Shown here: positions 277 to 17,600 of the stretch, piece by piece
How the letters are laid out: each line of letters begins with the position of its first letter
Position numbering within the stretch: position 1 is the stretch's first letter
NCBI RefSeq assembly: GCF_024502345.1
Contig: NZ_JALDNN010000001.1
Length of the DNA: 64,000 bases
Reading direction: 5' to 3' (one strand)
Source: Escherichia coli
GTDB lineage: Bacteria; Pseudomonadota; Gammaproteobacteria; Enterobacterales; Enterobacteriaceae
The notes under the pieces: generated by a model
Database searches by the model: none
The model's input: the letters and a program-made list of their open reading frames with translations, nothing else
Told to the model about the DNA's origin: nothing
Position numbers and translations under genes: made by a program

Positions 277-1333
277 GGCTTTGTTGAATAAATCAGATTT
301 CGGGTAAGTCTCCCCCGTAGCGGGTTGTGTTTTCAGGCAATACGCACGCTTTCAGGCATACCTGCTTTCGTCATTTTGTTCAGCGCTCGTACCAGGGCCA
401 TAGCCTCTGCAACCTGACCATCGTAGTCACGCAGTGTCAGTGAACCCCCGAACAGCTGTTTTACCCGGTACATCGCCGTTTCCGCTATCGAGCGACGGTT
501 GTAATCTGTTGTCCATTTCCACCGCGCATTACTCCCGGTCATTCGCTGATTAGCCACTGCACGGTTACGGTCTGCATATTCACCGGGCCAGTAACCCGCA
601 CCTTTTCGGGGAGGGATAAGCGCGCTGATTTTCTTACGCCGCAGTTCATCGTGACATAGCCGGGTATCGTAAGCGCCATCGGCGGCGGCTGACCTGATTT
701 TCCGGTGGGTTTGCCGGATTAACCCGGGGAAGGCCTCTGAGTCCGTAACGTTGTTCAGCGACAGGTCAGCGCAGATGATTTCATGTGTTTTACTGTCAAC
801 GGCGAGATGCAGCTTACGCCAGATACGGCGGCGTTCCTGGCCATGCTTTTTGACTTTCCACTCGCCTTCACCGAAGACCTTCAGCCCGGTGGAATCAATT
901 ACCAGGTGTGCGATTTCACCCCGGGTGGGCGTTTTGAAACTGACATTAACCGACTTTGCCCGCCTGCTGACACAGCTGTAATCCGGGCAGCGTAGCGGAA
1001 CGTTCATCAGAGAAAAAATGGAATCAATAAAGCCCTGCGCAGCGCGCAGGGTCAGCCTGAATACGCGTTTAATGACCAGCACAGTCGTGATGGCAAGGTC
1101 AGAATAGCGCTGAGGTCTGCCTCGTGAAGAAGGTGTTGCTGACTCATACCAGGCCTGAATAGCTTCATCATCCAGCCAGAAAGTTATGGAGCCACGGTTG
1201 ATGAGGGCTTTATTGTAGGTGGGCCAGTTGGTGATTTTGAACTTTTGCTTTGCCACGGAACGGTCTGCGTTGTCGGGAAGATACGTGATCTGATCCTTCA
1301 ACTCAGCAAAAGTTCGATTTATTCAACAAAGCC
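277..1333 (-). mobile_element. IS903-group insertion sequence (IS5 family), copy 1, 1057 bp
   Basis: 18-bp terminal inverted repeats GGCTTTGTTGAATAAATC at 277..294 and its reverse complement at 1316..1333; single transposase ORF inside; ends match the IS903 ends known from Tn903. No flanking 9-bp direct repeat (ggcaataac vs cccttgccg). Confidence 0.9.
333..1301 (-). CDS. IS903-type DDE transposase (322 aa)
   Basis: ORF MKDQITYLPDNADRSVAKQKFKITNWPTYNKALINRGS... occupies nearly the whole IS; identical to the protein at 16576..17544. Confidence 0.9.
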   Translation of the reverse strand: MKDQITYLPDNADRSVAKQKFKITNWPTYNKALINRGSITFWLDDEAIQAWYESATPSSRGRPQRYSDLAITTVLVIKRVFRLTLRAAQGFIDSIFSLMNVPLRCPDYSCVSRRAKSVNVSFKTPTRGEIAHLVIDSTGLKVFGEGEWKVKKHGQERRRIWRKLHLAVDSKTHEIICADLSLNNVTDSEAFPGLIRQTHRKIRSAAADGAYDTRLCHDELRRKKISALIPPRKGAGYWPGEYADRNRAVANQRMTGSNARWKWTTDYNRRSIAETAMYRVKQLFGGSLTLRDYDGQVAEAMALVRALNKMTKAGMPESVRIA

Positions 1334-1690
1334 CCTTGCCGCATTACTTAATGCTAATATTGAGTTGGGTAATGACCCAATAATTGGTATAGAAGCCTAT
1401 CCCGGTACCGCGGAGATCCATGCAAAAATGGGATATAAAGTTATCCCGGGTGATGAAAATGCACCACTCAAACGTATGACTCTGCAACCGTCATCTCTTC
1501 CAGAACTGTTTGAATTAAAAAATGGTGAATGGAATTATATTGGTAAATAACTACCAGGAACAATGAGTACTAATATTCAGGTTATACAGATATTTAAACA
1601 ATACCCTGCAATTTACAAAGTAATACTCATTGCGACTTCTTAATTTAAGAAAGCGCAAGGAACGTTTACCCTTGCGCTTATTATAATAAG

Positions 1691-2464
1691 TCAGGCGTCG
1701 ACTTTATCCAGCGGCCATGAATCAAACAGATAGCCATCAAAATAAATATCGTCAACGTTCGAGAATTCCAGCAGACGTTGCTTAACGTTTTCCAGATGCT
1801 GCCACATTGCCAGCTTCGCCGCTCGGGCATCTTTTTTGATTAACGCGGCGAGGATCTGTTTGTGATCGCCCAACCACTCTTTGCGATACAGGCTGTCATC
1901 CAGATGGCTGTGCAACTGGATCCACATTGGATTGTTTTCCCGCCACTGCCAGGACTGACGGAACAGCTCCACCAGCATGCTGTTATGCGTTGCTTCGGCA
2001 ATAGCGAGATGGAACTGCATGTCACCGCTTTCGCTGCTGCCCGGCGCACTGGAAGCCAGTTCACACTCTTCCAGTTGCAATGCCTGACGCATTTTGACGA
2101 TATCTTCGCGGGTAGCCTGCAAAGCGGCAAACTCGGCGATGTTGCTCTCCAATAACTGCCGCGCCTGTAACAGCTCAAAAGGACCGGCATCGTTGCAGAC
2201 GTTGGCATCCGGACTGTCTGTGTTCTGGCTGCCTGAGTTATCAAGAACATAGATACCGGCACCCCGGCGTACTTCCACCAGCCCTTTGATCTCCAGCATG
2301 ATCAGCGCTTCACGTACCACCGTCCGCGTGACATCAAGCATTTCTGCAATTTCACGCTCCGGCGGCAGCCGTTCGCCAGGGTTGTACGGCGTCTTTATGA
2401 TCAGATCGCGGATCATCGCCCCGACTTCCTGGTAAGGTCTTTGCGCAGAGGTGGCAGATTTCAT
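1691..2464 (-). CDS. uxuR: GntR-family repressor of the hexuronate regulon, UxuR (257 aa)
   Basis: Translation MKSATSAQRPYQEVGAMIRDLIIKTPYNPGERLPP... recognised as E. coli UxuR; sits downstream of uxuAB. Confidence 0.9.
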   Translation of the reverse strand: MKSATSAQRPYQEVGAMIRDLIIKTPYNPGERLPPEREIAEMLDVTRTVVREALIMLEIKGLVEVRRGAGIYVLDNSGSQNTDSPDANVCNDAGPFELLQARQLLESNIAEFAALQATREDIVKMRQALQLEECELASSAPGSSESGDMQFHLAIAEATHNSMLVELFRQSWQWRENNPMWIQLHSHLDDSLYRKEWLGDHKQILAALIKKDARAAKLAMWQHLENVKQRLLEFSNVDDIYFDGYLFDSWPLDKVDA

Positions 2465-16506: not shown

Positions 16507-16543
16507 TCAGCGACAGGGGCATGGTGGCTCGTAGCATCCACCA

Positions 16544-17600
16544 GGCTTTGTTGAATAAATCGAACTTTTGCTGAGTTGAAGGATCAGATCACGTATCTTC
16601 CCGACAACGCAGACCGTTCCGTGGCAAAGCAAAAGTTCAAAATCACCAACTGGCCCACCTACAATAAAGCCCTCATCAACCGTGGCTCCATAACTTTCTG
16701 GCTGGATGATGAAGCTATTCAGGCCTGGTATGAGTCAGCAACACCTTCTTCACGAGGCAGACCTCAGCGCTATTCTGACCTTGCCATCACGACTGTGCTG
16801 GTCATTAAACGCGTATTCAGGCTGACCCTGCGCGCTGCGCAGGGCTTTATTGATTCCATTTTTTCTCTGATGAACGTTCCGCTACGCTGCCCGGATTACA
16901 GCTGTGTCAGCAGGCGGGCAAAGTCGGTTAATGTCAGTTTCAAAACGCCCACCCGGGGTGAAATCGCACACCTGGTAATTGATTCCACCGGGCTGAAGGT
17001 CTTCGGTGAAGGCGAGTGGAAAGTCAAAAAGCATGGCCAGGAACGCCGCCGTATCTGGCGTAAGCTGCATCTCGCCGTTGACAGTAAAACACATGAAATC
17101 ATCTGCGCTGACCTGTCGCTGAACAACGTTACGGACTCAGAGGCCTTCCCCGGGTTAATCCGGCAAACCCACCGGAAAATCAGGTCAGCCGCCGCCGATG
17201 GCGCTTACGATACCCGGCTATGTCACGATGAACTGCGGCGTAAGAAAATCAGCGCGCTTATCCCTCCCCGAAAAGGTGCGGGTTACTGGCCCGGTGAATA
17301 TGCAGACCGTAACCGTGCAGTGGCTAATCAGCGAATGACCGGGAGTAATGCGCGGTGGAAATGGACAACAGATTACAACCGTCGCTCGATAGCGGAAACG
17401 GCGATGTACCGGGTAAAACAGCTGTTCGGGGGTTCACTGACACTGCGTGACTACGATGGTCAGGTTGCAGAGGCTATGGCCCTGGTACGAGCGCTGAACA
17501 AAATGACGAAAGCAGGTATGCCTGAAAGCGTGCGTATTGCCTGAAAACACAACCCGCTACGGGGGAGACTTACCCGAAATCTGATTTATTCAACAAAGCC
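16544..17600 (+). mobile_element. IS903-group insertion sequence, copy 2, 1057 bp, inverted relative to copy 1
   Basis: Same 18-bp terminal repeats at 16544..16561 and 17583..17600; transposase identical in translation to copy 1. No flanking direct repeat (catccacca vs tctcactct). Confidence 0.9.
16576..17544 (+). CDS. IS903-type DDE transposase (322 aa)
   Basis: Protein identical to ORF 333..1301. Confidence 0.9.
   Translation: MKDQITYLPDNADRSVAKQKFKITNWPTYNKALINRGSITFWLDDEAIQAWYESATPSSRGRPQRYSDLAITTVLVIKRVFRLTLRAAQGFIDSIFSLMNVPLRCPDYSCVSRRAKSVNVSFKTPTRGEIAHLVIDSTGLKVFGEGEWKVKKHGQERRRIWRKLHLAVDSKTHEIICADLSLNNVTDSEAFPGLIRQTHRKIRSAAADGAYDTRLCHDELRRKKISALIPPRKGAGYWPGEYADRNRAVANQRMTGSNARWKWTTDYNRRSIAETAMYRVKQLFGGSLTLRDYDGQVAEAMALVRALNKMTKAGMPESVRIA

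Follow-up and report, generated by a model that had tools for sequence, protein, structure and literature searches.

The closest described counterparts of the locus analyzed here are Tn903, in which two inverted IS903 copies enclose a passenger (IS903-aphA1-IS903), and the deletions that insertion sequences (ISs) leave next to themselves. IS903B, of the IS903 group in the IS5 family, has 1057 bp, 18-bp terminal inverted repeats and a single DDE transposase, and it usually comes with a 9-bp target duplication, which is the mark of a simple insertion event and not of the IS903 element itself. In standard deletion-type intramolecular transposition, the IS and one flank are retained, the other IS end is joined to a new target, and the interval is lost. 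For IS903, the passages on this element in PMC11708052 and PMC12670165 (citing Bernardi and Bernardi 1991) report adjacent deletions as well as cointegrates, and missing duplications are usually explained there by adjacent deletion or by recombination between copies of an IS. In the Weinert/Grindley and Bernardi work, as cited in these passages, the IS is kept with one old and one new flank, the neighboring DNA is gone, and there is no duplication. IS150 in the E. coli long-term evolution experiment and IS5 in E. coli C have likewise been found at deletion junctions without duplications (PMC11708052).

We analyzed a stretch of 64 kb of E. coli DNA (referred to as the window here), in which two inverted IS903B copies bracket 15.2 kb. 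Both copies sit on deletion junctions, one in yjiC and one in the genomic island at leuX, and the DNA between them has kept its ancestral order. The element itself agrees with IS903B in size, terminal repeats and transposase but differs from the usual situation in that the 9-bp duplication is missing at both copies. The junctions resemble the adjacent deletions made by IS903, except that here the process is deduced from its end products; they differ from the IS150 and IS5 cases in the IS concerned and in coming from natural isolates rather than laboratory lines. The IS903B pair at deletion scars is an ordinary trace of IS activity, i.e., known biology and no new mobile element. The features of the region are collected in Table 1.

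TABLE 1 Features of the region from yjiC to leuX (window coordinates)
Feature	Position	Strand	Remarks
yjiC 5' fragment	118..276	+	53 codons; aligned to yjiC of FORC_043, GN25 and W409
IS903B copy 1	277..1333	-	1057 bp; transposase ORF 333-1301, minus strand
yjiC 3' fragment	1334..1550	+	Aligned to intact yjiC
uxuR, uxuB, uxuA	1691..5440	-	Ancestral orientation relative to yjiC
gntP deletion scar, then last bases of fimH	5802..6209		~1.2 kb of gntP missing, in common with W409
IS1 copy	6210..6977		No target duplication; fimH 3' end joined to middle of sce7725
IS3 copy in sce7725	7416..8673	-	Intact 3-bp duplication (TGT)
Rest of sce7725, then sce7726	8674..10140	-	leuX-island genes
IS integrase-core fragment and truncated type I methylase gene hsdM	11246..13148	+	As in leuX island of ET210
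End of IS3-family element, remnant	13149..13301		Left edge of autotransporter module
AIDA-type autotransporter gene	13318..16506	+	1062 aa; mobile passenger
IS903B copy 2	16544..17600	+	1057 bp; transposase ORF 16576-17544
alpA 5' fragment	17601..17754	-	51 codons; ends inside IS903B as 54-aa chimeric ORF
DUF6387 gene and P4-type integrase of leuX island	17921..20092	-	
tRNA-Leu(CAA), leuX	20282..20366	-	Attachment site of island

Two identical IS903B copies and their flanks

The two copies form 1057-nt arms (277-1333 and 16544-17600) that show 100% complementarity and enclose 15,210 nt, and no other pair of long repeats is present in the window. Both carry a perfect 18-bp inverted repeat (GGCTTTGTTGAATAAATC) at each end. 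In copy 1, the right end (IRR, downstream of the transposase gene) points outward at 277 and the left end (IRL, upstream) faces the interior at 1333; in copy 2, the interior side is likewise IRL (16544) and the outer side IRR (17600). The transposase of each copy matches the IS5-family model NF033579 over its full length with 357 bits (cutoff, 140), and the nucleotide sequences are 99 to 100% identical to annotated IS903B copies from many E. coli genomes, reaching 100% over 274-1337 in H35. We assign the element to the IS903 group of the IS5 family as a full member.

Copy 1 is flanked by the 9-mers GGCAATAAC (left) and CCTTGCCGC (right), copy 2 by CATCCACCA (left) and TCTCACTCT (right). No pairing of these four flanks, direct or reverse-complement, yields a 9-bp duplication. 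Within 25 nt of the junctions, no word longer than 7 nt is common to any two flanks in either sense, and no shared word stands in register with the IS ends. A preliminary description of this DNA had reported two identical, inverted IS903 copies without target duplication, and had named duplications at re-examined boundaries, or nucleotide differences between the copies, as results that would speak against it. Its IS coordinates proved exact, the copies are identical over all 1057 nt, and the boundaries hold no duplication. Only one of its flanking 9-mers, cccttgccg, has to be shifted, since it starts one base early, inside the IS; this has no consequence for the conclusion that the flanks do not match.

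Deletion junctions in yjiC and in the leuX island

In the intact yjiC genes of FORC_043, GN25 and W409, the two flanks of copy 1 lie 455 bp apart in the same orientation. The left flank ends in ...GGCAATAAC, which intact yjiC continues with CATAATTACG..., and the right flank begins with CCTTGCCGC..., preceded in intact yjiC by ...GGATTCGC. The missing 455 bp are absent from the whole 64-kb window. The gene had been described as split by copy 1; it is indeed interrupted, but not by a simple split, since 455 bp of yjiC have been replaced by the IS. The 5' fragment is continued by IS903B sequence to give a 57-aa chimeric open reading frame (ORF). A 101-aa ORF reads out of copy 1 into yjiC, for which an exact-protein look-up gave no match.

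At copy 2, a point 37 bp beyond the stop codon of the autotransporter gene is linked to codon 51 of alpA, leaving 154 of the 207 nt of alpA, so that the truncation of this gene noted earlier is confirmed. The sequence that follows the left flank is TGCCAATTCTGCC... in seven other genomes, which have it in leuX as well as pheV islands; ahead of the right flank, intact alpA has ...CCATTCATCAA. The closest complete relative, GCA_052260775.1, carries the autotransporter gene in the same leuX island, and the two flank points of copy 2 are found there 12,001 bp apart, in that island and in the same orientation. Between them lie ankyrin-repeat genes, a relaxase, hypothetical genes and one copy each of IS5 and IS3. 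Strain G5, which at first seemed to share the junction between autotransporter gene and IS903B, was rejected: its IS lies upstream, inside the gene and next to gss, and the match consisted of joined BLAST pieces.

The target duplications are therefore missing because each IS903B copy sits on a deletion junction. The preliminary description had concluded that at least one recombination or adjacent-deletion event must have occurred and had proposed a comparison with related genomes. This comparison revealed two such junctions, one with a loss of 455 bp of yjiC and one with a loss of ~12 kb of the leuX island, and accounts for the absent duplications.

Origin and spread of the junctions

The structure expected from deletion-type transposition is the structure found at both copies. 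We favor, with somewhat better than even confidence, a history in which IS903B inserted twice and its transposase then made an adjacent deletion at each copy. One insertion would have been in or next to yjiC and the other in the leuX island, where it would have hit either alpA or the DNA right behind the autotransporter gene; given that the copies are identical in sequence, one was probably the source of the other. Later, at each copy, the IS903 transposase would have joined one IS end to a nearby target on the same DNA molecule, so that the IS and one original flank were kept and the DNA up to the new target was lost together with one copy of the 9-bp duplication. The losses would amount to 455 bp of yjiC at copy 1 and ~10 to 12 kb of island DNA at copy 2, and the composite-transposon look of the inverted pair would be a by-product of this history. 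The deletions themselves can be read directly from the comparisons above; their order and the transposase-mediated mechanism are what we infer.

If insertion came first, the precursor would read, on the plus strand of the window, TCGATTTATTCAACAAAGCC-GGCAATAAC-CATAATTACGATGG at the left point in yjiC or CCGGATTCGC-CCTTGCCGC-GGCTTTGTTGAATAAATCAGATT at the right one, and CCATTCATCAA-TCTCACTCT-GGCTTTGTTGAATAAATCGAAC at the point in alpA or CTGATTTATTCAACAAAGCC-CATCCACCA-TGCCAATTCTGCC on the autotransporter side. A duplication-flanked simple IS903B was found at none of these four positions in 5,426 complete E. coli genomes, so that the insertion-first intermediate can only be inferred. We also worked through the junction patterns of intramolecular replicative transposition, of the deletion and the inversion type and with events at the inside ends, and no path of fewer than four events yields all four flanks. 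Duplicative inversion followed by re-inversion was rejected, as it gives ordinary duplications and not deletions.

The same junctions could also be the product of homologous recombination: two IS903B copies, inserted separately and in direct orientation at the ends of each lost interval, would have recombined with loss of the interval and one IS. This would leave exactly what is observed, one IS between two unrelated flanks, and the sequence alone cannot separate it from a deletion made by the transposase. In favor of recombination, some E. coli genomes carry IS903B dozens of times (with as many as 47 matching places in one genome), and it repeatedly targets this island family, as IS903-type transposases lie in the same island in L026, L028 and L031. 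However, recombination requires two same-orientation insertions 455 bp apart in yjiC plus two in the island, i.e., six events in total versus four (two insertions and two adjacent deletions), and no relative with a directly oriented pair was seen among the complete E. coli genomes or the relatives recovered through the chimeric product of the truncated hsdM. We therefore regard recombination as possible but rather unlikely.

More doubtful still is a one-step origin, in which IS903B entered a DNA break during the deletion and left no target duplication. ISs at the center of new deletions without duplications are described in PMC11708052, whose authors put forward break entry to account for an IS5-family element of E. 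coli C. Yet they allow insertion followed by adjacent deletion as an alternative, all 14 traceable cases from the long-term evolution experiment were two-step, and nothing in the present sequence calls for a one-step event, which makes this origin improbable.

The outer junctions were found outside this assembly as well. The 54-aa chimeric ORF of AlpA and IS occurs in 23 to 24 independent gut-metagenome contigs and the 57-aa ORF of YjiC and IS in 5, with identical junctions and the same IS end. Every one of these contigs stops inside the IS, as short-read assemblies typically do. All come from ENA or Logan assemblies; the lineage was not seen in JGI data, and none of the four IS903B junctions occurs in the 5,426 complete RefSeq E. 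coli genomes. Given that the junctions recur base for base in independent assemblies, both outer junctions are real and inherited. Four contigs with the alpA junction (L009-L012) match the island end (17601-20400) with zero mismatches, while on the far side of leuX the chromosomal part of the same contigs shows 17 to 219 differences, indicating that one and the same island end, marked by the IS, occurs in different backgrounds, through either island transfer or recombination of the flanking chromosome. The contigs with the yjiC junction differ from each other by 0.3 to 0.7%. That the alpA junction is the more common one (~24 versus 5 records) is a weak indication that copy 2 is the older one and the source of copy 1.

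We give little credence to the idea that the 17.3-kb unit (IS903B-uxuRBA...autotransporter-IS903B) is an incipient composite transposon that could be mobilized from its outer ends, that the insertions entered deletion breaks in one step, or that the IS-marked island end (alpA::IS903B) spreads horizontally. An assembly artifact, with IS copies or flanks mis-joined, seems very improbable. Identical 1-kb repeats are a classic source of such errors, and independent confirmation covers the outer junctions and not the inner ones (1333/1334 and 16543/16544), but the outer ones recur in the contigs just described and the assembled order is the ancestral order.

Collinearity of the interior and the resemblance to Tn903

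The region reads yjiC-uxuR-uxuB-uxuA-gntP/fim remnants-genomic island-integrase-tRNA-Leu(CAA), which is the known order from yjiC to leuX in the E. coli chromosome. Positions 1333 to 6209 align contiguously with W409, and the interior as a whole is ancestral in its order, and in its orientation with respect to the two outer flanks, when compared with W409, ET210 and GCA_052260775.1; the comparison set consisted of W409, ET210 and three genomes recovered through the chimeric HsdM product. Exact-protein look-ups of that product with its native first residue and of the 1062-aa autotransporter gave no match. The IS1 copy connects the 3' end of fimH with the middle of sce7725, and the island has accordingly lost its far end and the chromosome its fim operon. 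Deletion junctions thus carry three of the four IS copies within 17 kb, and the IS3 copy is the only simple insertion among them.

Like Tn903, the locus consists of two inverted copies of the same IS around a passenger. Unlike in Tn903, the enclosed 15.2 kb are resident chromosomal and island DNA, collinear with its surroundings, and the unit shows no sign of ever having moved. No single 9-bp duplication surrounds it (GGCAATAAC versus TCTCACTCT), yjiC lies on both sides of copy 1, and instead of foreign DNA interrupting a contiguous target, the interior continues the flanks. The unit was not found at other loci or on other replicons; no plasmid carrying uxuRBA next to IS903 or the 17.3-kb unit was found, and the apparent plasmid matches are mislabeled pieces of chromosome without the IS. 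Given that only the formal feature of a composite transposon is present and the three that bear on movement are missing, a composite-transposon history can be discounted. Because the interior is ancestral in order and orientation, the segment neither came in as a composite transposon nor lies in inverted orientation at present. Of the Tn903-like arrangement suggested in the preliminary description, the formal resemblance holds and the movement as a unit does not. Its observation that the flanks lack the reverse-complement pattern of a simple inversion stands. That the 17.3-kb unit moved in as a Tn903-like transposon, or that the segment inverted between two duplication-flanked insertions (which would make the two left flanks, and likewise the two right flanks, reverse complements of each other), is hardly credible, and on these sequence comparisons we consider both refuted by the collinearity.

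The locus illustrates clearly how a tRNA-linked genomic island and an adjoining core gene are worn down by insertion sequences, and how an inverted pair of ISs that never was a composite transposon can pass for one. Beyond annotation, its significance is small: yjiC and alpA should be marked as pseudogenes arising from IS-associated deletions, and the annotation of the 15.2-kb segment should warn of its potential to invert, since RecA-dependent homologous recombination across 1057 bp of perfect inverted homology could plausibly turn it around. The autotransporter gene at its right end is also found in pheV islands and on plasmids of Kluyvera, Enterobacter and Klebsiella, at ~99.5% identity.

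Island end and its chromosomal settings

The island end running from the truncated alpA through the DUF6387 gene and the P4-type integrase gene to leuX (window 17601-20400) is 100% identical in metagenome contigs L009-L012, while the chromosome adjoining it in these contigs differs from that of the window by up to ~5%. Different E. coli backgrounds therefore carry the same island end, IS903B junction included. Elsewhere in the same island, IS903-type transposase genes occur in three genomes with an identical integrase (L026, L028, and L031), in some of which the chromosomal flank is different and possibly belongs to another genus. 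Insertions of the IS903 group into this island family seem to be repeated. In the window, yjgR directly follows ahr (20400-23300); the idnKDOTR block, present in strain ET210, is absent from this interval as well as from strain W409 and UTME-14.

The autotransporter module

Plasmids of Kluyvera, Enterobacter, and Klebsiella carry the module with the AIDA-type autotransporter gene (window 13302-16543) at 99.4-99.5% identity. Given that two direct IS1 copies flank it on Kluyvera plasmid pKATP2 (L041), the module is itself a travelling passenger. In relatives, the autotransporter ranges from 1062 to 1089 amino acids, and the copy number of the 9-bp repeat therefore appears to be variable; this repeat is also a frequent assembly break point.

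Deletion junctions, insertions, and other repeats

The IS1 copy of the window forms the junction between the last bases of fimH and the middle of sce7725; deletion has removed all of the fim operon and, from the leuX island, its distal end. The junction of IS3 with sce7725 is shared with draft genome GCA_001484235.1 (L036), the nearest relative seen, with 1 base different across 6.9 kb. The gntP scar is common to the window and W409. Further repeats are listed in the table; the 18-bp array presumably encodes a hexapeptide repeat within a coding region.

Insertions, scar, and repeats in the window
Feature	Position	Description
gntP scar	5802-5855	54-bp filler in place of ~1.2 kb gntP
IS1	6210-6977	No target duplication; flanks ACAAAAGTC / GATTATGTA
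IS3	7416-8673	Inside sce7725; 3-bp duplication TGT intact
9-bp tandem repeat	15439-15591	Pro-Asp-Asn units; autotransporter passenger-to-barrel linker
96-bp units	27337-27624	Three in tandem; REP/BIME-like palindromic content; near pepA-holC interval
18-bp tandem array	35612-35872	~14 units, ATTATTTAACTCCTGTAG-like
Fourth 96-bp unit	51326-51421	Diverged; 24 kb from tandem trio
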